DNA of 64,000 bases from Vicinamibacterales bacterium (GTDB lineage: Bacteria; Acidobacteriota; Vicinamibacteria; Vicinamibacterales; UBA8438), in contig OZ253457.1 of assembly GCA_965261285.1 (NCBI GenBank), positions 1,508,511-1,572,510 of the forward strand, read 5' to 3'. Below are positions 3,753-59,015 of this stretch, in pieces. The notes under the pieces were generated by a model, which worked only from the letters and a program-made list of their open reading frames with translations, made no database searches and was not told the origin of the DNA. Each line of letters opens with the position of its first letter. The first letter of the stretch is position 1. The position numbers and the translations under genes were made by a program.

Positions 3753-3992
3753 ATGGCGGTTGCTGAAAAGGTGAAGAGCATCATCGTGGAGCAGCTCGGT
3801 GTCGACGAGGAAGAGGTGACGTCGGACGCGTCGTTCGTGGACGACCTCGGGGCCGACTCGCTCGACACGGTGGAGCTCGTGATGGCGTTCGAAGAGGAGT
3901 TCGGCCTCGAGATTCCCGACGAGGACGCGGAGAAGATCACCCGCGTCAAGGAGGCCGTGGAGTACATCGAGACGCACTCGAAGAAGAAGTAG
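3753..3992 (+). CDS. acpP: Acyl carrier protein
   Basis: 79 aa with the '[20 protein letters not shown]' phosphopantetheine-attachment motif. A GGAGG lies upstream of the ATG. Confidence 0.95.
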
Positions 3993-13419: not shown

Positions 13420-14805
13420 TCACGCCGAGGGCGGCGCCGACATCACCGCGTCCGGCGTGAAGATCGACGCCCCGTCGACCCGGCCTCCGGCGCCGCGCTT
13501 CAGCCACAGCGCGAAGTGCAGCTTACGGCCGTGCCGGAACGGGATGCGTCGCGCCTTGCGGCGCAGCTCGGCGAGCAGCGCCGCGGGGTCGGCGCGGTCC
13601 GACCACTTGGCTTCGCCGAGCAGCAGGTGGCGCCGGTCGGACGACTCGGCCACGACATCGATCTCCAGCGGCGCACCGCCGGCGTCCCGGCCCCACCAGC
13701 GCGAGGCGGGGTTCCAGCGGACGCCGGCCGTCGCCAGGCGCGGCGCCGAACGTCGCGCCAGCCACTCCCAGACCTCGGCCACGTGGCCGGGGAGCCGGGC
13801 GAGCACGTCGGCCTCGACGGCGTCGATCAGGTCGAGCTCGAGGCGGGACCGGTTCGGCGCGACGAACCGGTACCAGAACAGCAGGAACGGGTCGTCCAGC
13901 CGGTACAGGCTGCGCCGCGTCGACCGGACGCTCTCGCCGAAGGGCACCTCTCGCCGCACGTAGCCCAGGTCGATCAGGCGGCTCAGGGGACGGCTCAGGT
14001 TGGTGGCCGACTGGCCGACGCGGCTCGCGAGCTCGCTCAGCCGGTGGCATCCGGCGCCGATCAGGCCGAGCAGCGAGTTGGCCTGAACGGCGCTGCGCAT
14101 GTCGTCGAGCAGAAGCCGCTGCGGCTCGCCGTGAAGCACCCCGTTGCGGTCGAGGACGAGCGCGTTCACGGCCTCCGACGTCGACGGGTAATCGGCGGCG
14201 AGCTCCCAGTTGCGCGGCAGCCCGCCCCAGACCGAATAGGCGACGACGCTGTCCTCCGCGCCCAGCGCCAGCGCATCGGGCAGCGCCTCCGGCGGCATCG
14301 GTGCGACCTCGACGATCTCCGCGGCGCGGCCGTACAGGGGCGCGGTCTCGTCCAGCACGAGGCCGTGCATCATGCGCTGGGACGACCCGCACGCCACGAG
14401 GCGGAGCGGCCGTTCCCCGGGGCGGTCGACGATTCGCTGAACGATGCTGGGAAGCGCGGGGGAGACCTGCACCAGATAGGGCAGCTCGTCCAGCACCAGC
14501 CAGGCGTCCCGGGGGGCGCGCGTGCGCCAGGTGTCGAGGGCGGCCCCCCAGTCGTCGTACGAGGCGGCGGCGAACGTCGGCACGACACGCTCCGCCTCGA
14601 CCGCGAGGGTCCGGCGCTGAAGGCTGGCGTCGCTGAGGTCGGCCAGGTAGTACGCGTGCCGCTGGCCGCGCAGTGCCTCCTGCAGAAGCCGCGACTTGCC
14701 GCACCGCCGCCGCCCGTAGACGACAATCAGGGAGCCGCCCGGCCGGGACAGAGCCCGTTGCAGACGCGCGAGCTCGCGAACACGGTCGAGGAACGGAAGC
14801 CGCAC
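13420..14805 (-). CDS. ATPase (Arch_ATPase/AAA-type P-loop) with C-terminal DUF234
   Basis: 'FLDRVRELARLQRAL...LIVVYGRRRCGKSRLL' Walker A, 'WLVLDELPYL' Walker B-like, a wHTH-like middle region, and a C-terminal 'EIDVVAESSDRRHLLLGEAKWSDR' DUF234-like nuclease-fold motif. GTG start at 14805. Confidence 0.8.
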   Translation of the reverse strand: MRLPFLDRVRELARLQRALSRPGGSLIVVYGRRRCGKSRLLQEALRGQRHAYYLADLSDASLQRRTLAVEAERVVPTFAAASYDDWGAALDTWRTRAPRDAWLVLDELPYLVQVSPALPSIVQRIVDRPGERPLRLVACGSSQRMMHGLVLDETAPLYGRAAEIVEVAPMPPEALPDALALGAEDSVVAYSVWGGLPRNWELAADYPSTSEAVNALVLDRNGVLHGEPQRLLLDDMRSAVQANSLLGLIGAGCHRLSELASRVGQSATNLSRPLSRLIDLGYVRREVPFGESVRSTRRSLYRLDDPFLLFWYRFVAPNRSRLELDLIDAVEADVLARLPGHVAEVWEWLARRSAPRLATAGVRWNPASRWWGRDAGGAPLEIDVVAESSDRRHLLLGEAKWSDRADPAALLAELRRKARRIPFRHGRKLHFALWLKRGAGGRVDGASIFTPDAVMSAPPSA

Positions 14806-14812
14806 AGCATAG

Positions 14813-14842
14813 ATTGTGCTTCTGGAACATTATGTTTGTAAA
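14813..14842 (-). promoter_or_regulatory. Candidate sigma70-like promoter for the ATPase gene (possibly a leaderless transcript)
   Basis: On the minus strand: TTTACA (14842-14837), an 18-nt spacer, CACAAT (14818-14813), then 7 nt to the GTG start at 14805. It sits in the most AT-rich stretch of this region (14806-14860). Confidence 0.3.
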
Positions 14843-15002
14843 GCCATATAAAGGCGCAGGGACATCTTGCGGGCGCCGGATTCGTGAGCCATCATGCACC
14901 AGCGTCGACGGGAAGCCCTGTCGCGCTCGGCGACGATTGGCGGGCCAGGTGCCGGTCGCGCGCACGGGCTTCCGCCACGGGCTCCTGGAACGGGAGGACG
15001 AC

Positions 15003-22160: not shown

Positions 22161-24596
22161 ATGACCGGAGGCCCGAAACGGATGCCACGAGGTCGGTTCG
22201 TGCGGCGCGCCCTCATCCTCGTCGCGGGTCTCGCCTTGGCGCCGGCCGGCACCGACGCGCAGCCGGCGTCGTCCGCGTCCGCCGGCCTCGAATCGGCCGC
22301 CTCCGAACGGGCCGTCATCGACCGCTACTGCGTCACCTGCCACAGCGACCGCCTGCTGACCGGCGGCCTGTCGCTGGAGGGCGTGGACCCTGCCGACGTC
22401 GCCGCGCACGCCGAGGTGTGGGAGAAGGTCGTCCGCAAGCTGCGCGCGGGCGCGATGCCTCCCCGGCCCCGGCCGCGCCCCGACGCCGAGACCCACGAGC
22501 GCCTGCTCGCCTACATCGAGACCGCCCTCGACGACGCCGCGCGGGCCAACCCCGACCCCGGCCGCACCGAGACCTTCCGGCGGCTGAACCGGACCGAGTA
22601 CCAGAACGCCATCCGCGACCTGCTGGCCCTGGAGATCGACGTCACCGCGCTGCTGCCGCGGGACGACGCCGCCTTCGGGTTCGACAACGTGGCCACCGGG
22701 GGCCTGTCGCCGACCCTGATGGAGCGTTACCTCGCCGCCGCGCGGACCGTGAGCGAGCTGGCCGTAGGCAGCCGGGCGCCGGCCCCGGGGAGCCGGGTGG
22801 TCGTGGTGCCCGCGGACCGCACCCAGGAGGACCACGTCGACGGCCTGCCGTTCGGGACCCGCGGGGGGACCGTCGTCGAGCACGTCTTCCCGTTCGACGG
22901 CGAGTACGAGATCCAGGTCCGCCTGCAGCGCAATCGCAACGAGAACGTCGAGGGGCTGACCGAGCCGCACGAGGTGGAGCTGACCCTCGACGGCGAGCGC
23001 CTGGGCCTGTTCACCATGGAGCCGAGCACGAACATGGTGATCCAGGCCAACGCCACGTACTACGCGGACGAGGGCATCGACAACCACCTGAACGTTCGCC
23101 TGCCGGTCACCGCGGGGCCGCACCGGGTGGGCGCCGCGTTCATCAAGAAGAACTCGGCCCTCCTCGAGACCACCCGGCAGCCCTACGACGCCCACTTCAA
23201 CATGGACCGCCATCCCCGGCAGCAGCCGGCGGTGCGCACCGTGTCGATCGCGGGGCCGTTCGACCCCAGCGGCATCGGCGAGACGCCGAGCCGCGACCGC
23301 GTCTTCTCGTGCCGGCCCGCGGACGACACCGCCGCGGAGGCCGAGGCGTGCGCCGCCGCCATCGTCGCCTCCCTGGCCCGGCGCGCCTACCGGCGGCCCG
23401 TCGACTTCGGGGACATCGAGCAGTTGACGGGCTTCTATCGCGAGGGCTACGCCGAGGGCGGGTTCGAGGCCGGGGTCGAGACGGCCTTGAGGGCCCTGTT
23501 GACGAGCCCCGAGTTCCTGTTCCGCATCGAGCGCGACCCCGCGGGGGTGGAGCCGGGCACCGCGTACCCGGTCAGCGACCTCGAGCTGGCCTCGCGCCTC
23601 TCGTTCTTCCTGTGGAGCAGCCTGCCCGACGACGAGCTGATCGACGTCGCGGCGCCGGGACGCCTGCGCGAGCCCGAGGTGCTGCGGACCCAGGTGCGGC
23701 GCATGCTGGCCGACTCCCGCGCCGAGACGCTGACCACCAACTTCGCGTCGCAGTGGCTGCACCTGAGGAACCTCGACGCCGTCACCCCCGACGCGCGCAA
23801 CTTCCCCGACTTCGACGACAACCTGCGCCAGGGCTTCCGCACCGAGACCCAACTGCTGTTCCGGAGCGTCGTCGACGAGGACCGCAGCGTCACCGACCTG
23901 CTCACCGCCGACTACACGTTCCTCAACGAGCGGGTCGCGACCCACTACGGGGTGCCGGGCATCTACGGCGACCACTTCCGCCGCGTCGCCCTGCCCGCGG
24001 GCAGCCCCCGCGCGGGCGTGCTCGGCCACGGGAGCATCCTGACCGTGACGTCCTACGCCACGCGGACCTCGCCGGTGCTGCGCGGCAAGTGGATTCTCGA
24101 GAACCTGCTGGGGACGCCCCCGCCGCCCCCGCCCCCCAACGTGCCGCCGCTCGAGGAGAGCGCGTCGTCGACCGGCGTCCTGTCGATGCGCGAGCGGATG
24201 GTCGCCCACCGCCAGAACCCCGCCTGCGCGGTCTGCCACCGCATCATGGACCCGGCGGGGCTGTCGATGGAGAACTTCGACGCCATCGGCCGCTGGCGCG
24301 ACGTCGAGGGCGAGGGCGGGGCGGCCATCGACGCGTCGGGGAACCTGCCCGGGGGCGAGCTCTTCGACGGCGTGGCCGGCCTGCGCCGGGCCGTGCTCGA
24401 CCGTCCGGACGTGTTCGTCGGCACCGTCACCGAGAAGCTTCTGATCTATGCGCTGGGGCGCGGCATCGAGCCTGCCGACGGCCCCGCCGTCCGCGCGATC
24501 GTCGACGCGGCGTCCCGCGACGACTATCGCTTCTCTTCGCTCATACTGGGAATCGTCGAGAGCCCGCCCTTTCAGATGAGGAGATCGCAGTCATGA
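22161..24596 (+). CDS. DUF1592/DUF1588/DUF1595-family protein with an N-terminal c-type heme motif (module copy A)
   Basis: Signal peptide, 'IDRYCVTCHSDRLLTGGLSL...KLRAGAMPP' (CxxCH, planctomycete-cytochrome-c-like), then 'FRRLNRTEYQNAIRDLL', 'SRLSFFLWSSLPDDEL', 'FASQWLHLRNL' and 'CAVCHRIMDPAGLSMENFDAIGRWR', all typical of the PSD/DUF158x-159x family. Confidence 0.85.
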   Translation: MTGGPKRMPRGRFVRRALILVAGLALAPAGTDAQPASSASAGLESAASERAVIDRYCVTCHSDRLLTGGLSLEGVDPADVAAHAEVWEKVVRKLRAGAMPPRPRPRPDAETHERLLAYIETALDDAARANPDPGRTETFRRLNRTEYQNAIRDLLALEIDVTALLPRDDAAFGFDNVATGGLSPTLMERYLAAARTVSELAVGSRAPAPGSRVVVVPADRTQEDHVDGLPFGTRGGTVVEHVFPFDGEYEIQVRLQRNRNENVEGLTEPHEVELTLDGERLGLFTMEPSTNMVIQANATYYADEGIDNHLNVRLPVTAGPHRVGAAFIKKNSALLETTRQPYDAHFNMDRHPRQQPAVRTVSIAGPFDPSGIGETPSRDRVFSCRPADDTAAEAEACAAAIVASLARRAYRRPVDFGDIEQLTGFYREGYAEGGFEAGVETALRALLTSPEFLFRIERDPAGVEPGTAYPVSDLELASRLSFFLWSSLPDDELIDVAAPGRLREPEVLRTQVRRMLADSRAETLTTNFASQWLHLRNLDAVTPDARNFPDFDDNLRQGFRTETQLLFRSVVDEDRSVTDLLTADYTFLNERVATHYGVPGIYGDHFRRVALPAGSPRAGVLGHGSILTVTSYATRTSPVLRGKWILENLLGTPPPPPPPNVPPLEESASSTGVLSMRERMVAHRQNPACAVCHRIMDPAGLSMENFDAIGRWRDVEGEGGAAIDASGNLPGGELFDGVAGLRRAVLDRPDVFVGTVTEKLLIYALGRGIEPADGPAVRAIVDAASRDDYRFSSLILGIVESPPFQMRRSQS

Positions 24597-25933
24597 TGAT
24601 CACCAAGATGGCCCTGCCGCGGCGGACGTTCCTGCGAGGCGCGGGAGCGGCCCTGGCCCTGCCGCTGCTCGACGCCATGGTGCCGGCCGCGTCCGCCCTG
24701 GCCAATACGGCCGCGCCGCGGCGGCTCGGCTACGTGTACATCCCGATGGGGATGAACCCGGTGCCGTGGACCCCGTCCGAGGTGGGCCGGCTGACCACGC
24801 TGTCGCCGACGCTTTCGCCGCTGCTGCCGAACCTCGAGAACGTGACGGTGGTGACCAACCTCGAGATCAACGACGCGCACATCTCGGGGAACCACGCGTC
24901 GGCGAACTCGGCGTTCCTGACCTGCGTGCGGCCCAAGCGCACCGAGGGCAGCGACTACGTCAACGGCACCTCCGTCGACCAGATCGCGGCCCGCAAGGTC
25001 GGCCGCGACACGCCGCTGCCGTCGCTCGAGATCGGCACCGACCTGATCGCCCAGGTCGGCAACTGCGACAACGGGTTCGCCTGCGCCTACATGAACAGCC
25101 TGTCGTGGGCGTCGCCGACCGCGCCGAACCCGACCGAGGCGGACCCCCGCATCGTCTTCGAGCGTCTCTTCGGCAAGGGCGGCACCCCCGAGCAGCGCAA
25201 GGCGCAGCTCCACCGCGACCGCAGCATCCTCGACTGGGTGCTCGACGACATGTCCCGCCTGCAGTCGCAGCTCGGCGCCGGCGACCGCAACAAGGTGGCC
25301 GAGTACCTCGACACCGTCCGCGAGGTCGAGCGCCGCATCGAGCGGGCCGAGGCGTCGGCGGCGGCCTCGCCGCTGAGCGACCTCACCCGCCCCACGAGCG
25401 TGCCCGACGTCTGGGAGGACCACGTCAAGCTGATGTTCGACCTGCAGGTGCTGGCGCTGCGCGCGGACCTGACCCGCGTCGTCACGTTCCAGATGGCGCG
25501 CGAGGCGAGCACTCGCACCTATCCGCAGATCGGCGTGCCCGAGCCGCACCACCCGACGTCGCACCACCTCGACAACCCCGAGAAGCTCGCCCAGCTCGCG
25601 AAGATCAACCAGTACCACGTGTCGCTCTTCGCCTACATGGTCGACCAGCTCGCGGCGACCGCGGACGGCGACGGCAGCCTGCTCGACCACACCACCTACA
25701 TGCTCGGCAGCGGCCTCGGCAACCCCAACGTGCACGACCACCGCAACCTGCCCATCGTCGTGGCGAGCGGCGCGGGGTCGCGCATCGCCGGCGGGCGGCA
25801 CGTCAAGTACGACGAGCTGACGCCGATGGCCAACCTGCACCTGACGCTGCTCGACGACGTGGGGGTGCACCTGGACGACTTCGCCGACAGCACCGGCCGC
25901 ACCGGCGAGATCGTCGAGCCGTTGTCGCTGTAG
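24593..25933 (+). CDS. DUF1552-domain protein with a TAT-type signal (module copy A)
   Basis: The ATG overlaps the upstream stop (ATGA). 'LPRRTFLRGAGAALALPLLDAM' twin-arginine signal and 'GVPEPHHPTSHH' motif. Confidence 0.85.
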   Translation: MMITKMALPRRTFLRGAGAALALPLLDAMVPAASALANTAAPRRLGYVYIPMGMNPVPWTPSEVGRLTTLSPTLSPLLPNLENVTVVTNLEINDAHISGNHASANSAFLTCVRPKRTEGSDYVNGTSVDQIAARKVGRDTPLPSLEIGTDLIAQVGNCDNGFACAYMNSLSWASPTAPNPTEADPRIVFERLFGKGGTPEQRKAQLHRDRSILDWVLDDMSRLQSQLGAGDRNKVAEYLDTVREVERRIERAEASAAASPLSDLTRPTSVPDVWEDHVKLMFDLQVLALRADLTRVVTFQMAREASTRTYPQIGVPEPHHPTSHHLDNPEKLAQLAKINQYHVSLFAYMVDQLAATADGDGSLLDHTTYMLGSGLGNPNVHDHRNLPIVVASGAGSRIAGGRHVKYDELTPMANLHLTLLDDVGVHLDDFADSTGRTGEIVEPLSL

Positions 25934-48009: not shown

Positions 48010-49353
48010 CTACACCGCGACAGGGTCGAACAGGGTGTCGACGGTGCCGGTGCTGTCGCCGAACTGGTCGAGCCTCACGCCCACCCGGTCGAGCAGGGTG
48101 AGGTGGAGGTTGGCCAGCGGCTTGCCGGTCTCGTAGCGGATGTGGCGCCCGCCGTTCACGCCCGCCGCGGCCCCGCCGGCCACGAGGATCGGCAGGTTGA
48201 CGTGGTCGTGGAGGCTGGGGTTGCCCATGCCGCTGCCGTACATGTAGACGGTCTGATCGAGCAGCGACCCGTCGCCGTCGGGGGTCTCCTTCAGCTTCTG
48301 CAGGAACTCCGCGAACAGCGAGACGTGGAACGTGTTGATCTTGGCGATCTTCGCGAGCTTCTCGGGGTCGTTGCCGTGGTGGCTCGTCGGGTGGTGCGGA
48401 TCGGGGACCCCGATCTCCGGATAGGTGCGGTTGCTCAGCTCGCGCGTGAGCTGGAACGTGACGATGCGGGTGATGTCGCCCTGGAACGCCAGCACCTGCA
48501 GGTCGAACATCAGTCGCGCGTGGTCGGCGAACGAGTCGGGCACGCCCACCGGTCGGTCCAGATCGGGGAAGAGGTTGTCGCTGGCCGCGGCCTCGGCCCG
48601 CTGAATCTGGCGCTCGACCTCGCGGATGCTGTCGAGGTACTGCTCGACGCGGGCCCGGTCGGCCGCGCCGACGGCGCCCTTGAGCCGCGCGATGTCCTCG
48701 TTGAACGAGTCGAGCAGGCTGGCGCGGCTCTGCAGCGCCGCCTTCCGCTCCTCCGCCGTGCCGCCCTCGCCGAAGAGGCGCTCGAACACGATGCGGGGAT
48801 GGGCCTCGGCCGGCAGCGGGGTCGTCGGCGACGACCACGACAGGCAGTTCTGGTAGACGCAGGCGTAGCCGTTGTTGCAGACGCCCGCGAGCGGGTTCAG
48901 GTCCATCGACAGCTCGAGCGACGGAAGCTGCGTGTCCTGGCCGATCTGCAGGGCCGCAAGCTGGTCGGCGGTGGTGCCGAGGAAGTAGTCGGAGCTCTCG
49001 GTGTGCTTGGCGTAGGCGGCGCTGAGGAACCCGGAGTTCGACGTGTCGTGCGTGCCCGGGTAGGAGAGCTGCAGCTCGGTGTTGGTCACCACCGTGAGCT
49101 GCTCCTTGACCGGCTCGAGGGGGCTGAGGATCGGCGTGAGCTGCCCCAGCTCGTCCCGGTCGGCGGGCGTCCACCGCTGGTGGTCGCACCCCATCGGAAT
49201 GAACACGTACCCGAGCCGGCGGATCGGCTTGGCCGGCGTGCGGGCGAGGGCGGTCGCCGCGGGGATCATCGCATCGAGGAGGGGCAGGGCCAGCGTGGCC
49301 TGGACGCCCTTCAGGAACGTACGCCGCGGTAACGCCTTCTTCGTGATGATCAT
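48010..49353 (-). CDS. DUF1552-domain protein with a TAT-type signal (module copy B)
   Basis: 'MIITKKALPRRTFLKGVQATLALPLLDAM' and 'GVPDPHHPTSHH'. The ATG overlaps the upstream stop (ATGA at 49350-49353). Confidence 0.85.
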   Translation of the reverse strand: MIITKKALPRRTFLKGVQATLALPLLDAMIPAATALARTPAKPIRRLGYVFIPMGCDHQRWTPADRDELGQLTPILSPLEPVKEQLTVVTNTELQLSYPGTHDTSNSGFLSAAYAKHTESSDYFLGTTADQLAALQIGQDTQLPSLELSMDLNPLAGVCNNGYACVYQNCLSWSSPTTPLPAEAHPRIVFERLFGEGGTAEERKAALQSRASLLDSFNEDIARLKGAVGAADRARVEQYLDSIREVERQIQRAEAAASDNLFPDLDRPVGVPDSFADHARLMFDLQVLAFQGDITRIVTFQLTRELSNRTYPEIGVPDPHHPTSHHGNDPEKLAKIAKINTFHVSLFAEFLQKLKETPDGDGSLLDQTVYMYGSGMGNPSLHDHVNLPILVAGGAAAGVNGGRHIRYETGKPLANLHLTLLDRVGVRLDQFGDSTGTVDTLFDPVAV

Positions 49354-51752
49354 GTGGAGTTCCTCATCTGAAACGGGACGCTCTTGACGATGCCGAGGAT
49401 GATCGACGAGAAGCGGTAGTCGTCCGCTTCGGCCTCGCGGACGATGGTGCGGACGGCGGGCGCGTCGTAGTACTCGACGCCCCGGCCCAGCGCGAACGTG
49501 AGCAGCTTCTCCGTCAGCCGGCCCACGAACAGATCGGGCCGGCTCAGCAGGCCGTCCTCGAGGCCGTCCACCCCGGCGAGGGCGCCGACGCCGGGCAGCC
49601 CGCCCGAGACGTCGATGCGGCCGTTGTCGCCCTCCTGGTCGCGCCAGCGGCCGAGGGCGTCGAAGTTCTCGAGGGCGAAGCCGACGGGGTCGATGGTCCG
49701 GTGGCAGCTCGCGCACGCCGGGCTGTTGCGGTGCTGGGCGAGCCGCTCGCGCATCGGGAGGTTGGCCGCCACCTCGTTCTCCTCGAGGGCCGGCACGTCG
49801 GGGAGCGGCGGGGGGGGCGGGGCCCCGAAGATGTTGTCGAGCACCCACACGCCGCGGATGATCGGCGATGTCCGGGTCGCGTAGGAGGTCACGGCGAGGA
49901 CGCTGCCGTGCCGCAGCAGCCCCCCGCGCCGGCTCCCCTTGTCGAGGCCCACCCGCCGGAACCGCGTGCCGTAGACGTCGGGAATGCCGTAGTGCTTGGC
50001 GAGGCGTTCGTTCAGGAACGTGTAGTCGGCCCGCAGGAGGTCGAGCACGCTGCGGTCCTCGTCGATCACGCTGTCGATGAACCGTTCCGTCTCCTCGCGG
50101 AACGCCTGCCGCAGGTTGTCGTCGAAGTCGGGGAAGAGGCGCCCGTTCGGGCTCAGCGCCGCGAGGTTGCGCAGCCGCAGCCACTGCCCGGCGAAGTTGC
50201 TCGCGAGGTTGAACGAGCGGGGGTCGGCGAGCATCCGCCGCGTCTGCCGCTCGAGCTCGTCGGGGTCGCTCAGCTCGCCGCGGATGGCCGCGTCGAGCAG
50301 CTCGTCGTCGGGCAGGCTGCTCCAGAGGAAGAACGAAAGCCGCGAAGCCAGCTCCAGGTCGCTGACGTGGTACGCGGGGATGCCGCCGCCGCGGTCCGGG
50401 TCGACCTCGACGCGGAACAGGAACCGCGGATTGATGAGGACCGCGCTCAGGGCCCGGCCGATGCCGGCGTCGAAGTCGCCGCCCGCCCGGCCCTCGCGGT
50501 AGAACGCCATCGGGCCGTCGAGGTCGGCGTCCGAGACCGGCCGCCGGTAGGCCCGCCGCATCAGGGTGGAGAGGATCTCCCGCGCGCAGCCCTCCTCCTC
50601 GCTCGCCTGCGCCGGCCGGCACACGAACAGCCGCTCGCGGCTGGGGGTGTCGCTGACGCCCTGCGGGGCGTAGGGGCCGGTGATCGACACCTGGTAGACG
50701 GCCGGGGTCAACCGCGGATGACGGGTCTCGTTGAAGTGCGACTGCCCGGGCCTGCGCTCGGTCTCCATCAGCGACGAGGCGCTCTTGAGGAACGTGACGC
50801 CGAGGTCGTGGGGGCCGGCGGTCACCGAGGCGCGCACCTTCAGGTCGCGGTCGACGAGCGCGTCGTCGCCGCGCTCGGGCCGCTGGACCGTGAAGCTCGC
50901 GACGGGGACCCGGTCGAGCAGGATCTCCATCTCGTGCGGCTGCCGGTCGCGCAGCCCGCCGATGTTGCCGGTGCGGTTCCGGGCCAGCCGCACCTGGATG
51001 TCGTAGTCGCCGTCCTGGGCGAACGTGTAGGGAATCACGACGCCGCCGCGCGTGCCGAGGGGCAGTCCGGGGACGTGCTCTTCCTGCGTGGTGTCGGCGG
51101 GCACGCGGATCACGTCGGCCTGCAGCGAGGTCTGGGTGGTGCCGATGACGAGCCGGCTGATCTTCTGGGCGGCCGAGATGTAGCGGTCGAGCAGGGCCGG
51201 CGGCAGGTCGCCGACGGTCACGTTGTCGAAGCCGTAGCCGCTCTCGTCGGGGGGCAGCAGGGTGGTGGCGTCGACGTCGAGGGCCAGGAGGTCGCGGATG
51301 GCGTTCTGGTACTCGGTGCGGTTGAGCCGGCGCAGGGTCTCGGTACGGCCCGGGTTCGGGCTCGCCGCCGCCGCCGCGTCGAGCGTCGACGCGAGCCACG
51401 AGGCCATCGCGGCGCGGGCCCCGGCCGGCGGCTGCGGCCGGTTCGGCGGGGGCATGGTGCTCGTGCGCAGCTTGCGCACCACGCCCTCCCAGATCTCGGC
51501 CTCGGCCGGCACGTGCGCGACGTCGATGTTCTCCAGGCTCAGCCCGGCCGTCTCGAGGCGGTCGCTGTGGCAGGCGACGCAGTAGCGATCGAGCAGTTGG
51601 CGGGCGTCGGCCGCCGATGGCGACAACTCCGTCGCCCCAGATCCCTGAGCTTGCGCGCCCGCTGGCAGCCACAGACTCAGGCCGAGGAGGATCGAGGCCC
51701 CGGTGGCCACCGTCGTCATGCGGGAAACGGCCCGGGAAGACCCAAATCTCAT
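49350..51752 (-). CDS. DUF1592/DUF1588/DUF1595-family protein with an N-terminal c-type heme motif (module copy B)
   Basis: 'LDRYCVACHSDRLETAGLSL...KLRTSTMPP', 'LRRLNRTEYQNAIRDLL', 'SRLSFFLWSSLPDDEL', 'FAGQWLRLRNL' and 'CASCHRTIDPVGFALENFDALGRWR'. It is collinear with copy A. The start is ATG 51752, or the ATG for 'MTTVATG' 33 nt downstream. Confidence 0.85.
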   Translation of the reverse strand: MRFGSSRAVSRMTTVATGASILLGLSLWLPAGAQAQGSGATELSPSAADARQLLDRYCVACHSDRLETAGLSLENIDVAHVPAEAEIWEGVVRKLRTSTMPPPNRPQPPAGARAAMASWLASTLDAAAAASPNPGRTETLRRLNRTEYQNAIRDLLALDVDATTLLPPDESGYGFDNVTVGDLPPALLDRYISAAQKISRLVIGTTQTSLQADVIRVPADTTQEEHVPGLPLGTRGGVVIPYTFAQDGDYDIQVRLARNRTGNIGGLRDRQPHEMEILLDRVPVASFTVQRPERGDDALVDRDLKVRASVTAGPHDLGVTFLKSASSLMETERRPGQSHFNETRHPRLTPAVYQVSITGPYAPQGVSDTPSRERLFVCRPAQASEEEGCAREILSTLMRRAYRRPVSDADLDGPMAFYREGRAGGDFDAGIGRALSAVLINPRFLFRVEVDPDRGGGIPAYHVSDLELASRLSFFLWSSLPDDELLDAAIRGELSDPDELERQTRRMLADPRSFNLASNFAGQWLRLRNLAALSPNGRLFPDFDDNLRQAFREETERFIDSVIDEDRSVLDLLRADYTFLNERLAKHYGIPDVYGTRFRRVGLDKGSRRGGLLRHGSVLAVTSYATRTSPIIRGVWVLDNIFGAPPPPPLPDVPALEENEVAANLPMRERLAQHRNSPACASCHRTIDPVGFALENFDALGRWRDQEGDNGRIDVSGGLPGVGALAGVDGLEDGLLSRPDLFVGRLTEKLLTFALGRGVEYYDAPAVRTIVREAEADDYRFSSIILGIVKSVPFQMRNST

Positions 51753-51800: not shown

Positions 51801-53387
51801 TCAACGCGGCCGGGTGAGCGGTTCCGTCAGCGGTCCGAGCGGCTCCCGCACCCACCAGGCTCCGTCCGCGCCCTCCTCCCGGGTCGTGAACCGGTAGCGG
51901 TACAGCATGAGCCGGACGAAGCGGGGCGGCCCGTCGGGGAACGGCGTGCCGTCGAGCAGGCCGAGGGCGGGCGGGTCGTCCTCCAGCAGGCCCTCGGCGA
52001 GGGGCAGCAGCCAGTGGCCGTTCCCCCGGGGATCGAGGGCCGCGAACCACATCCGCCAGTCGAGCCGCGGCATGTGGGCCAACGCGAAGCCGGGCGCCCG
52101 CGCGGGGTCGCCCGGCTTCCATCGGAACGGGTACTCGAGCCAGGTCGAGCCGTCCGCGCTGCCTTCGATGACGATCTCCGGACGCTCGGTCGTCATCACC
52201 CGGAACAGCCCGTAGCCGTTGACGGAGCGGAAGGGACCGGCCCAGTCGTCGAGGAGGACGTCGGCCCACGCGGGCATCGGCGCGGGAGCGCGGACCTCGC
52301 GAACCAGCGCGAGGGTGCTCAGCAGCGCGAGCAGCGCCGTCACCGCCGCCCGTGCCCACCGCCGCCACGCCGGGGCGCGACGGGGCGGGTTCCCCATCAT
52401 GCCGGCGCCAGCCCGGAAATCGTCGCCTCCAGCGCCGATTGCCGCCCAACCAACCCTGCTTGGCGTCGGCACCGTTCCAGGGCGCAGACGCCTGGAGACG
52501 CCGGGGCGGAGCAGCCGCGCGACGGCCGCGTCGTCGAGGAGCGACAAGTAGAGGACGACGGCGAGCAGGTTGAAGAAGCCGTAGCTGCCGGTCGCGGCAA
52601 TCAGGACCTGCAGCAGGCAGAGCAGTCCGCAGCCCGTCATCCGGATGCGCCGGAAGCGGGCCGGCGCGAGGATGGCGAACGGAACCGCGAGCTCGATGAC
52701 GAACATGACGCCGACCGACAGCGTGCCGAACCAGTCGGGCGCGTTGTGCGCGTACCAGCCGATCCAGGTCGGCAGCGGCTGCGTCTGGTAGTGGTGCTCG
52801 AGCGCGGTCAGGCCCCGCCAGGTCGCATCGCCGCTGAGCAGCTTGGTGGCGCCCGAGAGGAACGTCAGCTTGAACGCGAGGCCCCAGACCAGCCAGCGCG
52901 CCGCCGCCCCCGGCTCGCCGCCCGCCCCGAGGGGCACGCGCCAGCCGGCCGGGGCGTACAGCGCGGCGAGCAGCCCCGCTTCCAGCAGCAGCGCGTCCCA
53001 CTGGAACACGAGGAAGTCCTGACCGGCGACGGTGAGCCCGAGGTAGCAGACCCAGAGGGCCGGGAACACCGCCCTCGGCGCGACGCCGGCCATGGCCGCG
53101 GCCGACAGCGCCATGCCGAGCCAGCACGTTCCCACGAGGAAGCCGTCGCTCGGCCAGAGCCAGAGCAGCGTCGGCAGGTCGTGGTAGGCGGCGCGGCCCC
53201 ATATCTCGTACGCGCGGTCGAGATACGCGGCGGCGGGCATCAGGCCGTCGGCGCCGACCAGCCCGAGGATCTGCGGCGCGAGCGAGGCGAACGCCGTGAG
53301 GTGGACGAGGCCGAGCAGGCGCAGGAACAGATCGCGCGACAGGGCGAAGCACGGCGGGCCGCCGGTAGGAGGGAAAGGGCCGGCCAC
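51801..53387 (-). CDS. Lipase-maturation-factor (LMF1-like) family polytopic membrane protein
   Basis: 'LSRDLFLRLLGLVHLTAFASLAPQILGLVGADGLMPA...PTLLWLWPSD' N-terminus, many hydrophobic helices, and C-terminal 'PPRFVRLMLYRYRFT' as in the LMF family. The start is inferred as GTG 53387. Track ORF 51801..55694 runs on upstream through another gene's antisense or alternative frame. Confidence 0.7.
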   Translation of the reverse strand: MAGPFPPTGGPPCFALSRDLFLRLLGLVHLTAFASLAPQILGLVGADGLMPAAAYLDRAYEIWGRAAYHDLPTLLWLWPSDGFLVGTCWLGMALSAAAMAGVAPRAVFPALWVCYLGLTVAGQDFLVFQWDALLLEAGLLAALYAPAGWRVPLGAGGEPGAAARWLVWGLAFKLTFLSGATKLLSGDATWRGLTALEHHYQTQPLPTWIGWYAHNAPDWFGTLSVGVMFVIELAVPFAILAPARFRRIRMTGCGLLCLLQVLIAATGSYGFFNLLAVVLYLSLLDDAAVARLLRPGVSRRLRPGTVPTPSRVGWAAIGAGGDDFRAGAGMMGNPPRRAPAWRRWARAAVTALLALLSTLALVREVRAPAPMPAWADVLLDDWAGPFRSVNGYGLFRVMTTERPEIVIEGSADGSTWLEYPFRWKPGDPARAPGFALAHMPRLDWRMWFAALDPRGNGHWLLPLAEGLLEDDPPALGLLDGTPFPDGPPRFVRLMLYRYRFTTREEGADGAWWVREPLGPLTEPLTRPR

Positions 53388-53626
53388 GGGCCATTGTAAC
53401 GTCCCGCCGCGCGTCGCCCGTGGCGACGGGGTGCACGTCAGATTCGCGAGATGGCTGTCCCCGTGGGCTGTCAGGCTCCCGATTCTTGGTGTTCTCGGCT
53501 GTGAAACCCCTCCGGAACGCGCCGTCCCCGCCTCGGCGGTGCGATTCGCAGGCCGCGTCTCACTTTCTTGACGTGCGCCCGCGGCGTAAAGGCGCCGCGT
53601 TGCACCGCGCCCGATAGCGACGTCGG

Positions 53627-55735
53627 TCAGTCCTCTCGGGCCATCCGGCCCGCGTCGAGCTGGAGCGCGGCCAGCAGGGGGCCGAAGCGCCGCTCGAAGT
53701 TGCCGATCTTCGCGCTGGCGACGGTCAGGCGCTCCTCTCCGCACCGGAACACGAGATCGTCGGTCACGCGCCCGCGGCGGCGGGCGAGCCGGACGGGGGC
53801 CACGGGGTGGAACTCGGGCCGGATGGGATGCACCTCCGGCTCGCTGTCGTCGACGACGAGCTCCTTGTCGGCGACCGCGCCGACGACGACGCGGTCGGGG
53901 TGGAACGCCAGCCACCGCGACCGTCCCGCGCGGGTGGTCGCGGCGAGCACGGCCAGCGCCGGCTCGCCGTCGCCGAGCTGGCGCAGAATCGCCGGCGCCG
54001 CGCGGGGCGGCCACGTCGAGAGGTCGGGCAGACGCAGCCGTTCCCGCAGGCGCCGGGACGCGGCGTCGACATAGTGCTTCCAGGCCGCCGCGACCTGCTT
54101 GCGTTCGGGAAGAAGCACCCACGCGTGCAGCAGCACGAGGTGGTCGTGCTCGATCGGCCACGGCGGCGGTGCGGAGCACAGCAGATCGGCCACCGACGTC
54201 AGCAGCGGCTCGGCCAGGCGGTCCCCGACGAGGGCCGGCGGGGGCGCGTCCGGGCCCGGTTCTCGCGGGCCGCCTCCGGCCTCGTACGCCGCCGCCACCG
54301 CGCGCGCGAGCAGCCGTTCCGCCTCGTCCTCGTCGACGGTCTCCCGCACGCGCGCGCTGAACGCGCCGGCACGAAGAGACTCGCCGGCCTGCGCGCGGTC
54401 GGCATCGAGGCAGTCGCGCGCCAGCGCGGCGAGCAGCGCGAAGCCGTCGGCCGCGCGTCGTGCCTCGGGGCGGTGAGAGTCGCCGAGGTCGACCGGCAGC
54501 GGCAGGCGGCGCTGCAGGGCCTCGATGGCCGATCGCGCGTCCGGCGCCTGCAGGCCGTGCATCCCCGACAGCAGGTCGGCGAGGCGCTCGGCGACGGCCC
54601 GCCGGTCTTCCGGCCGCAGCGCGTCGAGGTCGACGGGCGGCACCGACGGCGGCGCCGGCGCGCGGTCCTCGGCCAGCGCGCGCAGCAGGGCGATCTTCGC
54701 GAACTCGTCGGGGATCGGCGCGCGCAGGATGCGATCGAGCAGCCACCGGCGGTTGTGGTCGACGCCGGGGATGCGCGCGTGGATGCGGACCGCCTCGACC
54801 AGCGCGATCCAGTCGGGGCCGCGGTACGAACGCAGGGGGTCGTAGATGCGCGCCACGCGCAGGTAGACCAGCGCCACCGAGCTCTCCAGCAGCGTCTTCA
54901 GCCACACCTCCGCGCGCGACCTGATGAACCGCTTGCCCACGCGCTTGGCCACCTGCGTGCCCAGGGTCCACGCGACGACCCCGACGGGGCTCGCGCCGGT
55001 GGCGAGGCGGGTGGCGAGGAGCGCGCCGTTGAGATAGTGCTCCCAGGGCTCGAGCTTCCGGTAGAGGGCGAGGCCCTGCTGGGCCTGCTCGAGCTGGGTG
55101 ACGACGGTCTTGACCGACCAGGAGGCCGGATCGACGAACGGCACCTGCCGCACCGTCTGCAGCAGCTCGCCGACGGCCGAGCGTACCGCGAGGGCGATGT
55201 CCCCGGTGCGCGCCTCGAGGACCGCGTTGTCCGACTCGGCGTGGTACAGCGCCGCGACCTCCTGCACGACGTCGCGCAGCTCGGCGAAGATGGCGCCGCC
55301 GTCGAGGTCCACGATGCGCCCGTCCTCGCGGCGGACGTAGCGCCGGTCGGCGACGCCTTCCCACACGCGGTCGCAACGGTCGCGGATCATCTCGCCGAGC
55401 CGGCGTTCCTGCTCGTCGAGGGCCGCGGGTGAGGTGGGCGTGTCGGGGCGGCGGCGCAGCAGCTCGTCGTAGGTGCGCTCGACCGGCGACACGCCGGCCG
55501 CGGTCAGCCGGGCGTCCAGCCCCCGGAGCTCGTCGAGCCGGCGGTCGAGCTCGCCCATCGCCTCGGCGTCGGGAGGACCCCCGCGCGCCCCGGCCATGGC
55601 CCCGGCGCCGATGGCGCCCGCGCCCACGAGGGAGAGCGCCGCCCCCGCCTCGAAAGACAGCGAAACCCCCAGCGCGATGCCCGCCGCCACGCATCCGAGG
55701 CCGGCGGCGAGCCAGATGACCGATGCATGCCGCAT
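53627..55735 (-). CDS. Hypothetical membrane-anchored protein (702 aa), no recognised domain
   Basis: ATG 55735 ('MRHASVIWLAAGLGCVAAGIALGVSLSF...' hydrophobic N-terminus) is followed by a long, non-degenerate, helix-rich sequence. It is the in-frame tail of track ORF 53627..56815, whose upstream part is Pro/Arg/Ala-rich junk over the repeat region. Confidence 0.55.
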   Translation of the reverse strand: MRHASVIWLAAGLGCVAAGIALGVSLSFEAGAALSLVGAGAIGAGAMAGARGGPPDAEAMGELDRRLDELRGLDARLTAAGVSPVERTYDELLRRRPDTPTSPAALDEQERRLGEMIRDRCDRVWEGVADRRYVRREDGRIVDLDGGAIFAELRDVVQEVAALYHAESDNAVLEARTGDIALAVRSAVGELLQTVRQVPFVDPASWSVKTVVTQLEQAQQGLALYRKLEPWEHYLNGALLATRLATGASPVGVVAWTLGTQVAKRVGKRFIRSRAEVWLKTLLESSVALVYLRVARIYDPLRSYRGPDWIALVEAVRIHARIPGVDHNRRWLLDRILRAPIPDEFAKIALLRALAEDRAPAPPSVPPVDLDALRPEDRRAVAERLADLLSGMHGLQAPDARSAIEALQRRLPLPVDLGDSHRPEARRAADGFALLAALARDCLDADRAQAGESLRAGAFSARVRETVDEDEAERLLARAVAAAYEAGGGPREPGPDAPPPALVGDRLAEPLLTSVADLLCSAPPPWPIEHDHLVLLHAWVLLPERKQVAAAWKHYVDAASRRLRERLRLPDLSTWPPRAAPAILRQLGDGEPALAVLAATTRAGRSRWLAFHPDRVVVGAVADKELVVDDSEPEVHPIRPEFHPVAPVRLARRRGRVTDDLVFRCGEERLTVASAKIGNFERRFGPLLAALQLDAGRMARED

Positions 55736-56090
55736 GCGCGGCCGCAGTGTACCAGGAGGACGGAGCGCGGCGGTGAAGCGGGGCGGACGCCGAGTTGAGG
55801 CCGCCGGGGGAGCGCCGCGGCAGGGCTGCGTCGGGAGATGGGCAAGGTTGCGGGGGAGCCGCGCGTCAGGCCGGGTGGGAGCGCCACGGAAACACGCCGC
55901 ATGCGCGGCCGCAGTGTACCAGGAGGACGGAGCGTGGCAAGAAACGGGGCGGACGCTGGGGAGGCCTCCGGGGCAGCGCCGTGGCAGGGCCGGGTCGGCA
56001 ACTGGGGCAAGGCTGTGGGAGAGCCCCGCGTCCGGAAAGCTGCAAGGGGAGCCCCGCGTCGGGCCGGCCGGGTGGGAGCGCCACGGCGAG
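55729..56090. repeat. Tandem direct repeat of about 167 bp (2 copies; the 2nd has an internal ~30-bp extra duplication)
   Basis: Copy 1 is 55729-55895 and copy 2 is 55896 to about 56090. Both begin 'gccgcatgcgcggccgcagtgtaccaggaggacggagcg' and end '...ccgggtgggagcgccacgg'. The sub-repeat 'gcaagg..g.gggagcc.cgcgtc.gg' occurs 3 times. Copy 1 contains the start codon of gene 53627..55735. Confidence 0.85.
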
Positions 56091-56186
56091 GCGGGCGCGG
56101 TGGGAGGCGGCCTGGGCGCGATTCGGTGATGTCGCGGAGGCTCGCGGAGGAGGGCAGCACGGGACGACCGGTTATCATGACGGGTT

Positions 56187-59015
56187 GTGCTTGTCGTTGC
56201 GACGATCAGATCCATGGCCGCCGCCGGCCTCGCGTCGGCGGTCATCGCGGGCGCCGCGCTGGCCGCGCCCGGCCAGTCCGCACCGCCGGCCGCCCCGGCC
56301 GGCGGGCCGGTCGGCGTCGTGTCGCCGGCGCGCGGCGGGCCCGCGGTCTCCGCCTTCTCGAATCTCTCGGGCGACCCGGCCGACGCCTGGATCGGCGACG
56401 GCATCGCCGAGACCCTCTCCGTCGAGCTCGGGCGGTCGGCCGGGGTCCTGGCGCCCGGCCTCCGCGTGGCCGGCGCGTACCAGCGGGTGGGCGCCGACCT
56501 CCGGATCACCGCGCAGCTCGTCGATGCGGCGAGCGGGCGCGTCGCGGCCGGGGTGCGTGTCGACGGGGAGCTGGCGGATCTGTTCGGCCTGCAGGACGAG
56601 CTGGTCGCGCGCCTCATGGCGGCGGCGGGTGGCCACCGGCCCCCGGCCCCGACAGCGGAGGTGGCGACGAGCCGGCGCAATGACCTTGCGGAGGCGGCGG
56701 GCGGCGTCCGGTCCCCGGCGGCGGCCGCCGCCCTTCCCGCCGTTGCGGCGGAGACGGTCGCAGGCGTCCCCGACGTCGCGGCGGGCGCCGCGGCGGGGTT
56801 CGCGGCCGTGCCCACCCTGATTCACGGCCCGCCGCCGCCCCTGCCGCCCGAGGTGGTGGCCCGCGACGACCTCGGGCGCATGACCCTGCGCGCGATCCGG
56901 CTCGGCGCCCCGCTGCAGCTCGACGGCCGGCTCGACGAGCGGGTGTACCACGAGGTGCCGCCGGTGACCGACTTCGTCCAGCAGGAGCCGAACGAGGGCG
57001 CGCCCGCGGGGGACCAGACCGAGGTCTGGGTGACGTTCGACGACGACACCCTGTACGTGTCGGCGCGCTGCTGGAGCCGGGCGCCGGACCGCATCGTCGC
57101 GAACGAGATGAAGCGCGACAGCTACGGCATGTACGGCAACGAGACCCTCGGCATCGTCCTCGACACGTTCTATGACCGGCGCAACGCGTTCGCCTTCACC
57201 ACCAACGCCATCGGGGGGCTCTTCGACGCCCTCGTCACCGACGAGCGCAGCCAGAACATCGACTGGAACACGGTGTGGGACGTCGCCGCGGGCCGCTTCG
57301 AGGACGGGTGGACGGTCGAGGTCGCCATCCCCTTCAAGTCGCTCCGCTACCGGGCGGGGCCGGCCCAGATGTGGGGCCTCAACGTGCAGCGCCGGGTGGC
57401 GTCGACCAACGAGACCTCGTTCCTCACCCCCATCCCCGCCTCGCTGAGCTGGGCGGGGGCCTACAAGATGTCGTCGGCCGCGACCCTCGTGGGGCTCGAG
57501 GTGCCGGCCTCGGGCACCCGGCTCGAGGTCAAGCCCTACGGCATCTCCGACGTCGCCACCGACCTCTCTCGCGCCCCCGACGAGCGCACCGCCGCCGGCG
57601 GCGACGTGGGGTTCGACGTCAAGTACGGCGTCACCCAGGGCCTCACCGCCGACTTCACCTACAACACCGACTTCGCACAGGTCGAGGTGGACGAGCAGCA
57701 GGTCAACCTGACGCGGTTCAGCCTCTTCTTTCCCGAGAAGCGCGAGTTCTTTCTCGAGGGGCAGGGCATCTTCGACTTCGGCGGCGGGTTCACCAGCGAC
57801 TCGACGGCGTTCTACTTCGGGGGCGGACAGTTCTCGGGGACCGCGCCGATCCTGTTCTTCAGCCGGCGCATCGGGCTGCAGGACGGGCGGACCGTGCCCA
57901 TCCGGGCCGGCGGCCGGCTGACCGGCAAGGCCGGGCCCTACAGCGTCGGGGTGCTGAACGTGCAGACCGAGGGGGCTGGCGCCGCCGCCACCAACTTCTC
58001 GGTCGCCCGGGTCAAGCGCGACATCCTGCGCCGCAGCGCGGTCGGGGCCCTGTTCACCGGCCGTTCCGTGTCGCTCGACGGCAGCGGGTCGAACCAGGTG
58101 TACGGCGTCGACGGGCTCTTCTCGTTCTACGACAACCTGAACATGACGACCTATTTCGCCGAGAGCCGGCTGCCCGGGGTCAGCCGCGGCGACGCCATGA
58201 GCTATCAGGCGAAGCTGGACTACCGCGGCGACCGCTGGGGCTTCCTCGCGGAGCGTCTGGGCGTCGGGGCCGACTTCCGGCCCGAGGTGGGCTTCGTGCG
58301 CCGGCACGACTTCCGGCGCAACTTCGTGGAGGGGCGTTTCAGCCCGCGCCCGCTGTCGATCGCGTCGATCCGCAAGTTCCTGTTCCAGGGCAACGTCGAC
58401 TACACCACGGACGGCGCCGGCCTCCTCGAGACCCGGGCGCAGCAGGGGCTCTTCGGCATCGAGTTCGAGAACGGCGACATGTTCTTCGCGGGCGCCACCG
58501 ACAGCTACGAACGGCTGAAGGAATCGTTCCCGATGACACCCGACATCACCATTCCCGCCGGCGCCTACCGCTTCTCGAACGTCCGGGTCGTCTACGCGCT
58601 GGGCCAGCAGCGTGTCGTGTCGGGCGGCCTGAACTTCGACCACGGGGGGTTCTTCGGCGGCGAGCGCACCGGCGTGGGCTACACCTTCGGCCGCGCGTAC
58701 CTCTCGTCGCAGTTGAACGTCGAGCCGTCGGTGTCGTTCAACTGGCTCGAGCTGCCGCAGGGCGACTTCCGGACCGACCTCGTCTCGGTGCGCACCACCT
58801 ATACGCTGACCCCGCGCATGTTCGTGGCGGCGCTCTTGCAGTACAACTCGACCCTCGACTCGCTCGGCACCAACCTGCGCTTCCGCTGGGAGTACCAGCC
58901 GGGCAGCGAGCTGTTCGTGGTCTATACCGACGAGCGCGACACCCTCGACCCGCGGGGGCCGTTCCTCGAGAACCGCGCGTTCGTGGTCAAGGCCACGCGC
59001 CTCTTCCGCTTCTGA
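56187..59015 (+). CDS. CBM9-like + DUF5916 outer-membrane-type protein with an extra N-terminal periplasmic domain
   Basis: 'RLGAPLQLDGRLDERVYHEVPPVTDFVQQEPNEGAPAGDQTEVWVTFDDDTLYVSARCW...NDWNTVWDVAAGRFEDGWTVEVAIPFKSLRY' is CBM9/DUF5916-like, followed by a long beta-rich C-terminus ending 'VVKATRLFRF'. The N-terminal ~150 aa 'VSAFSNLSGDPADAWIGDGIAETLSVEL...LRITAQLVDAASG...LFGLQDELVARL' resembles the TolB-N/FlgO-like module seen at the N-terminus of many sensor proteins. The start is GTG 56187 or ATG 56214. Confidence 0.7.
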   Translation: MLVVATIRSMAAAGLASAVIAGAALAAPGQSAPPAAPAGGPVGVVSPARGGPAVSAFSNLSGDPADAWIGDGIAETLSVELGRSAGVLAPGLRVAGAYQRVGADLRITAQLVDAASGRVAAGVRVDGELADLFGLQDELVARLMAAAGGHRPPAPTAEVATSRRNDLAEAAGGVRSPAAAAALPAVAAETVAGVPDVAAGAAAGFAAVPTLIHGPPPPLPPEVVARDDLGRMTLRAIRLGAPLQLDGRLDERVYHEVPPVTDFVQQEPNEGAPAGDQTEVWVTFDDDTLYVSARCWSRAPDRIVANEMKRDSYGMYGNETLGIVLDTFYDRRNAFAFTTNAIGGLFDALVTDERSQNIDWNTVWDVAAGRFEDGWTVEVAIPFKSLRYRAGPAQMWGLNVQRRVASTNETSFLTPIPASLSWAGAYKMSSAATLVGLEVPASGTRLEVKPYGISDVATDLSRAPDERTAAGGDVGFDVKYGVTQGLTADFTYNTDFAQVEVDEQQVNLTRFSLFFPEKREFFLEGQGIFDFGGGFTSDSTAFYFGGGQFSGTAPILFFSRRIGLQDGRTVPIRAGGRLTGKAGPYSVGVLNVQTEGAGAAATNFSVARVKRDILRRSAVGALFTGRSVSLDGSGSNQVYGVDGLFSFYDNLNMTTYFAESRLPGVSRGDAMSYQAKLDYRGDRWGFLAERLGVGADFRPEVGFVRRHDFRRNFVEGRFSPRPLSIASIRKFLFQGNVDYTTDGAGLLETRAQQGLFGIEFENGDMFFAGATDSYERLKESFPMTPDITIPAGAYRFSNVRVVYALGQQRVVSGGLNFDHGGFFGGERTGVGYTFGRAYLSSQLNVEPSVSFNWLELPQGDFRTDLVSVRTTYTLTPRMFVAALLQYNSTLDSLGTNLRFRWEYQPGSELFVVYTDERDTLDPRGPFLENRAFVVKATRLFRF

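Follow-up and report, generated by a model that had tools for sequence, protein, structure and literature searches.

Tandem duplication of the start codon and 5′ control region of a conserved gene in a divergent intergenic spacer of a Vicinamibacterales bacterium

Tandem promoters upstream of a single gene, designated P1 and P2, are known from cases such as the rrn P1–P2 pair of Escherichia coli, and intergenic minisatellites or variable-number tandem repeats (VNTRs) are exemplified by the mycobacterial interspersed repetitive unit (MIRU)-VNTR loci of mycobacteria. In Mycobacterium tuberculosis, tandem repeats within promoters vary in copy number between strains, as found for a 57-bp repeat of dop and for lpdA and cysG, two of these genes having leaderless promoters (PMC12817950). 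Leaderless genes of high-GC bacteria are marked by a TANNNT motif ~10–12 bp upstream of the start codon (PMC3160421). Here, we describe a 167-nucleotide (nt) tandem repeat in the spacer between two divergent genes of a soil bacterium of the order Vicinamibacterales (Acidobacteriota; genome with ~75% GC), which was analysed within a 64,000-nt stretch of contig OZ253457.1 (positions 1,508,511–1,572,510 of the forward strand), hereafter the window. The minus-strand gene (53627–55735) encodes a conserved hypothetical protein of 702 amino acids (aa) and the plus-strand gene (56187–59015) a 942-aa DUF5916 + CBM9-like protein. The duplication copied the first 17 coding nucleotides of the 702-aa gene along with its 5′ control region, and the locus is probably best read as the duplication of a promoter module in a slippage-prone spacer. 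It represents ordinary structural variation and not a small RNA, a mobile element, a gene or a new class of element.

The copy-number variation of promoter tandem repeats in M. tuberculosis is the closest described case. In both systems, a promoter region (here a putative one) of a high-GC host has been duplicated head to tail beside a gene with a known or, here, candidate leaderless-type start, with copy numbers that differ among close relatives and with slippage or recombination as the presumed origin. The present unit differs in being longer (167 nt) and in including a start codon plus 17 nt of coding sequence (CDS). Moreover, its copies are old (~15% diverged) and fixed in a clade rather than phase-variable at the strain level.

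A repeat search of the window returned a 53-nt direct repeat (55719–55771 versus 55886–55938; 91% identical) with a start-to-start spacing of 167 nt, and a blastn comparison of the spacer with the entire window aligned the two head-to-tail copies with 83.6% identity over 146 nt (E = 5e-37). Pairwise alignment of the copies gave 28 differences in 173 aligned events. A 39-nt exact block (55729–55767 = 55896–55934) was matched at these two places of the window and nowhere else in it, while 100 shuffles gave no match, and a second exact block of 21 nt was found at 55869–55889 and 56066–56086. Tandem Repeats Finder, when run on the window, missed the 167-nt period, the likely reasons being the divergence of the copies and the indel between them; it was the repeat search and blastn that recovered the repeat. 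The 167-nt tandem repeat is genuine and not a product of chance.

The best register places copy 1 (proximal, 167 nt) at 55719–55885 and copy 2 (distal, 201 nt) at 55886–56086, so that the 702-aa CDS contributes its first 17 nt to the duplicated unit. In minus-strand orientation, copy 1 comprises these 17 nt, a −10-like motif and ~130 nt of C-rich upstream sequence. Copy 2 matches this content, the two copies being ~84% identical, and additionally contains a 28-nt-period internal re-duplication (56018–56063, no strand assigned), in which GGRGAGCCCCGCGTCSGG occurs twice (56018–56035 and 56046–56063) and which accounts for its greater length, seen as a 32-column gap in the alignments. The repeat search further reported GGRGAGCCSCGCGTCNGG as a triplet with a 28-nt period, two members of which lie within copy 2. 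At the breakpoints of the 167-nt duplication, there is a 4-nt microhomology (ACGG/ACCG). The repeats occupy 55736–56086, which corresponds to ~78% of the 451-nt spacer (55736–56186), and the remaining 100 nt (56087–56186) are unique; a short exact tandem, TCGCGGAGGC ×1.9, is found within this unique part at 56132–56150.

The ATG start codon of the 702-aa gene (55735–55733, minus strand) marks the point at which the periodicity in GC content at third codon positions (GC3) begins, in agreement with relatives of 700–702 aa. Its duplicate in copy 2 (55902–55900, minus strand) is a pseudo-start, which lies 167 nt farther upstream, is out of frame because 167 mod 3 = 2, and opens a 132-codon frame to 55504 without a coding signature. 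The first-pass annotation, made from the letters of the window, had described two tandem copies of ~167 bp filling the divergent spacer, and the repeat search, blastn and alignment bear this out with a register shifted ~10 nt to the left. Its further observations also held: the ATG of the minus-strand gene is in copy 1; a second ATG is out of frame in copy 2; an internal re-duplication, estimated there at ~30 bp, lengthens copy 2; and AGGAGG-bearing plus-strand sequence is present in both copies, each of which has accAGGAGGacgg on that strand.

Loci of relatives (L-numbers) were gathered through a homologue search combined with a genome scan. The two-copy structure with the 28-nt re-duplication was found in five assemblies, namely those of the window, L015 (99.5% identical) and L001, L016 and L017 (96–97%), with spacers of 451–453 nt. 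The sister lineage formed by L002, L018 and L019 (94–97% aa identity) has a single promoter-bearing unit in spacers of 247, 399 and 295 nt, respectively, so the comparison of copy number that had been recommended at the outset separates two-unit from one-unit relatives. The copies are ~85% identical to each other and each is 82–83% identical to the single L002 unit, which dates the duplication to about the split from the L002 lineage. The event is thus specific to one lineage and was followed by the 28-bp secondary duplication.

Assemblers can collapse or expand repeats in metagenome-assembled genomes, and an assembly artefact had been named as a concern for this locus. It is excluded by the occurrence of the same structure in five independent assemblies from different samples and pipelines; moreover, the copies differ by 16% and are hence separable by short reads. 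The related notion that the unit is a copy of a dispersed mobile repeat, such as a repetitive extragenic palindrome, a miniature inverted-repeat transposable element or a MIRU-like element, is contradicted by the search for further copies, which found none in the 64-kb window (blastn) or outside the spacer in the fetched loci. In addition, the unit has no terminal inverted repeats, and an exact 21-mer scan of JGI metagenome contigs gave 0 matches. Artefact and dispersed repeat together can be given next to no weight.

Motif conservation was assessed over 20 orthologous spacers, across which only two blocks are conserved, each abutting a start codon. The block before the 702-aa gene reads C-TG-n-TA-n-ACT-GC...GC-ATG, with TGnTAnACT present in 20/20 loci, where 10 nt (in three loci 13 nt) separate its end from the ATG. 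The columns of this motif are invariant, conservation is lost immediately upstream of it, and no Shine–Dalgarno (SD) sequence lies between it and the ATG. Within the 64-kb window, TGnTAnACT occurs twice, once per copy, and nowhere else. The proximal occurrence, P1, is the extended −10-like motif TGGTACACT (55746–55754, minus strand), located 10 nt upstream of the 702-aa ATG with neither a recognisable −35 nor an SD. The distal occurrence belongs to P2, a duplicated promoter-like module (55913–55940, minus strand) consisting of TTGCCA (55940–55935), a 16-nt spacer and TG-n-TACACT (55921–55913). On the other side, the −10-like TATCAT of the DUF5916/CBM9 gene (56173–56189, plus strand) lies 8 nt upstream of the GTG (56187) in a block that is conserved in relatives as TAT(C/G)AT, 8 nt before GTG and likewise without an SD.

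From these features, we infer that the two conserved blocks are back-to-back core promoters, and both divergent genes look leaderless or short-leadered. TGnTAnACT, not being followed by an SD, would represent the extended −10 of a σ70-type promoter that yields an mRNA without a leader or with one of 3–4 nt. The arrangement resembles that of described leaderless genes (Zheng et al. 2011, PMC3160421) in having TAnnnT just upstream of the start, no SD, a high-GC host and a position conserved across orthologues, and differs in that the distance of the first T from the ATG is 16 (or 19) nt instead of ~12. It flags TGnTAnACT-N10-ATG as a probable leaderless or short-leader promoter architecture in Vicinamibacterales. 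In L012, the two −10-like blocks stand back to back in a 64-nt spacer, and relatives with spacers of 64–78 nt keep just those two blocks; therefore, the intervening sequence, to which the body of the 167-nt unit belongs, can be dispensed with. SD-led genes also exist in the window according to an in-house start-site caller, which is too noisy to quantify the leaderless share.

Because the duplicated unit carries the conserved TGnTAnACT, the event created two tandem putative promoter modules. Its most likely origin is slippage during replication, or unequal exchange, between short GCGCTCCC-type motifs scattered through the spacer. The proximal P1 would give rise to a normal, translatable mRNA with a short leader. 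The distal P2, whose core is 100% identical to that of P1 and whose −35 is better, would, if active, produce a transcript that starts at or near the out-of-frame AUG and has a poorly structured ~170-nt leader with 49% C and 28% G. Such a transcript would reach the 702-aa ATG merely as an internal codon devoid of an SD, so that P2 would be likelier to modulate P1, through interference or read-through, than to add productive message. Its most likely effect would be to alter the expression level of the 702-aa gene, while encoding nothing itself. Within this scheme of duplicated promoter modules, the odds that P2 is active appear roughly even.

The arrangement thereby parallels rrn P1–P2 in having two co-directional σ70-type modules, here putative, 167 nt apart before one gene, the distal one giving the longer leader. 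Unlike in rrn, the modules are paralogous copies of each other, and the gene has no SD, so a distal transcript may be poorly translated. Among the explanations offered by the first-pass annotation, duplicated promoter units fit the data, since the unit carries the sole conserved promoter-like element of the 702-aa gene. A slippage-prone regulatory region fits as well, given the independent tandem duplications and length changes that the same spacer has undergone in relatives.

The state of the two copies bears on whether the distal module has been retained or is decaying. A σ70 scan of 55500–56400 gave a single hit, which lies in copy 2 (TTGCCA-16-TACACT with TG), against 0 in shuffles. The copy-2 −35 hexamer is TTGTCA in the clade of L001, L016 and L017, and the single-copy sister lineages have CTGCCG at the −35 place. 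Drift at this place in the proximal copy has produced CACCGCCG, which includes an additional base, and the −35 is thereby lost. The 39-nt core, which runs from CGCTCC through TGGTACACT to ATGCGGC, is identical between the copies, and the remainder is ~20% different. Directly beyond ATGCGGC, 4/10 of the formerly coding nucleotides of copy 2 have changed. If differences were placed at random, a 39-nt identical run would have P ~0.011, and the unbroken run points to constraint on both cores.

The alternative is that the second copy is a neutral relic, i.e. a by-product of slippage in an unconstrained spacer, with the proximal copy alone at work and the distal one silent and decaying. The divergence of the copies by 15–16%, the freedom with which the spacer of relatives gains and loses repeats and the sufficiency of 64 nt would all suit a relic. 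It is countered by the intact copy-2 core next to ten ex-coding nucleotides with four changes, and by a copy-2 −35 (TTGCCA or TTGTCA) nearer to consensus than the CTGCCG of the single-copy sisters. On balance, we regard a relic as rather unlikely.

Several findings weigh against the preferred reading of duplicated promoter modules, and two of them favour the relic. The copy-2 motif of L015 has changed from TGGTACACT to TAGATACACT, which removes the TG and lengthens the spacer to 17 nt. Orthologues of copy 2 differ more (10/192) than those of copy 1 (3/161), as would fit relaxed constraint, although the difference is not significant (P = 0.15). The 39-nt block could also stem from a short ancestral tract of gene conversion. 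Ongoing conversion is not the cause, because copy-1 orthologues cluster together (97.5–98.8%), as do copy-2 orthologues (94.8–97.9%), and within L001 the two copies differ from each other in the 39-nt block, such that there has been no homogenisation since the duplication. Furthermore, the −10-to-ATG spacing of 10–13 nt exceeds the ~6–7 nt typical of classic, strictly leaderless genes (PMC3160421), which makes a 3–6-nt leader likelier than a true 5′-AUG. Finally, the more distant homologues L020–L023 (46–55% aa identity) do not have the TGnTAnACT-N10-ATG block, so the architecture is confined to the closer clade. The neighbourhoods of L020–L023 differ, and in L021 the gene is co-directional with a DUF5916 gene.

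Taken as a promoter-module duplication, the locus provides a dated natural example from a high-GC bacterium in which a promoter and its start codon were duplicated and the distal copy kept the core and improved its −35, while the rest drifted.

Across relatives, spacer length varies between 64 nt (L012) and 482 nt (L006). Relatives with a single unit have other sub-elements duplicated, with unit lengths of 47 nt (L019) and 107 nt (L018). Additional tandem repeats are found in the spacers of L006 (22 nt in ~six copies at 3573–3703 and a 25-nt duplication at 3937–3986), L011 (a perfect 22-nt duplication at 3942–3985), L007 (an 11-nt duplication at 3959–3980) and L014 (49 nt in three copies at 3766–3908), the units being unrelated although they occupy the same spacer. 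In L011, L007 and the 25-nt duplication of L006, a repeat boundary falls inside or next to the −10-like motif. The spacer is thus hypervariable through repeated, independent tandem duplications (L006, L007, L011, L014, L018 and L019). A single intergenic spacer can therefore be a recurrent target of tandem duplication across an order of uncultured soil bacteria, and this recurrence of independent duplications at one promoter region is the feature most worth attention. As in MIRU-VNTR loci, tandem repeats of tens to hundreds of bp sit in GC-rich intergenic DNA and vary in number or length between relatives; in contrast to them, the units are specific to the locus rather than dispersed, and other relatives have unrelated units at the same place.

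The spacer shows a marked strand asymmetry, with 25 runs of GGG or longer on the plus strand versus 2 of CCC or longer, and 49% C on the minus strand. Its density of G-runs is in the top 0.16% of the 451-nt windows of the stretch. A G-quadruplex (G4)-like run of G-tracts lies on the plus strand at 55823–55856 in copy 1 and at the homologous position, 55987–56019, in copy 2. The G-run asymmetry and the G4-like motifs are a possible cause of the instability of the spacer. A more ambitious proposal would have the G-run-rich spacer act as a contingency locus, in which recurrent tandem duplications, affecting the −10 region of at least four lineages (the window clade, L006, L007 and L011), repeatedly rewire a leaderless-type promoter. 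The distal copy would then be a decoy or interfering promoter with an out-of-frame AUG and a C-rich, unstructured, rut-like leader, and expression of the 702-aa membrane protein would be set by the balance of productive P1 and non-productive P2. We consider this extension distinctly improbable.

The duplication could instead have doubled operator sites. According to this explanation, CCGYGGCGCTCCC is the binding site for a regulator of the divergent pair. It occurs twice per unit, is confined to this spacer within the 64-kb window and recurs, with several instances per spacer, in relatives (L002, L003, L004, L014, L018 and L019); moreover, GCCGCGGC is palindromic. However, common descent and local duplication can account for the recurrence of CCGYGGCGCTCCC, which is absent from the spacers of L005–L013 despite conserved genes and core promoters, and no regulator gene is adjacent. 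An operator array is accordingly an unlikely account of the repeat.

Regulation through another sigma factor was likewise considered. In promoters of the σ54 type (TGGCAC-N5-TTGC), a GG at −24 and a GC at −12 are invariant and lie a fixed distance apart. A σ54 reading of CTGGTACACTGC was rejected, as TGATAGACT in L007 and L010 has no GG and the GG-to-GC spacing is unfit.

Long open frames cross the spacer, the minus-strand frame being open to 56815, and the AGGAGG of copy 2 sits 7 nt ahead of a GTG. The repeat could thus be protein-coding, either as an N-terminal extension of the 702-aa gene or as a plus-strand open reading frame starting from AGGAGG-N7-GTG at 55934. Nonetheless, the GC content at codon positions 1, 2 and 3 of the spacer (55736–56186) is flat at 0.75–0.77 in all six frames, whereas the flanking genes have values of 0.82/0.52/0.94 and 0.69/0.51/0.96, a signature already present in their first 300 nt. 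No spacer frame shows the GC3 (~0.95) or GC2 (~0.5) of genes in this genome, so the long open frames, including the 132-codon frame from 55902, are the usual artefacts of high GC. In addition, the 167-nt period is not divisible by 3, relatives are annotated with 700–702 aa and a conserved N-terminus (MRH...), and their spacer lengths are incompatible with a conserved open reading frame. The spacer is non-coding, and the probability that we attach to a coding role is minimal.

On the minus strand, a TCCTCC immediately precedes TGGTACACT, and the plus-strand AGGAGG is the complement of this TCCTCC; in relatives, AGGAGG is replaced by AGCAGG, AGGCGG, GTCGGG and others. Its candidacy as a ribosome-binding site was rejected because it is the complement of a sequence beside the extended −10, is not conserved and is accompanied by no periodic frame in the spacer. 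Both the AGGAGG and the upstream ATG are unsuitable for gene calling at this locus.

A repeated, non-coding and strand-asymmetric intergenic sequence might also hold a duplicated small RNA gene or a structured cis-regulatory RNA, and a pair of small RNA genes had been suggested initially. This was not borne out by the Rfam and folding analyses proposed along with it. An Rfam scan at E ≤ 10 returned three chance-level matches only, none at E < 0.5, the best having 18–19 bits compared with gathering scores of 42–50. The putative P2 leader and the whole repeat on either strand folded less stably than dinucleotide shuffles (minimum free energy z = +1.74, +1.53 and +2.06), and no terminator-like site was found in the spacer region. 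Furthermore, the sequence is not conserved past the immediate clade and is absent from relatives with 64–78-nt spacers. An RNA gene or element is therefore very improbable.

The divergent gene pair is syntenic in 14/14 genomes recovered by the genome scan, and an LMF1-like gene comes after the 702-aa gene. The 702-aa protein has an N-terminal hydrophobic or transmembrane segment and no Pfam, NCBIfam or PDB sequence match, and exact look-ups of both flanking proteins matched no record. At least 198 homologues, down to ~43% identity, were found in Acidobacteriota and other metagenome-assembled genomes, the close ones consistently having 700–702 aa. The protein represents a sizeable family that is uncharacterised and has a membrane segment at the N-terminus.

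Further observations concern the rest of the window. The LMF1-like gene (51801–53387, minus strand) has a TACAAT 5 nt before its predicted GTG (window 53388–53412), which is another candidate leaderless-type start. An AT-rich stretch, tatatggctttacaaacataatgtt, at ~14806–14850 (minus strand) upstream of the gene at 13420–14805 (minus strand) is unusual in a genome of ~75% GC. Finally, the regions 22200–25933 (plus strand) and 48010–51626 (minus strand) apparently hold two paralogous gene pairs. The minus-strand pair encodes, according to Pfam, a DUF1592/DUF1588-type protein followed by a DUF1552 (HXXSHH) protein, and paralogy of the plus-strand pair is suggested by the gene sizes and the shared SD-like junction CAGATGAGGA.

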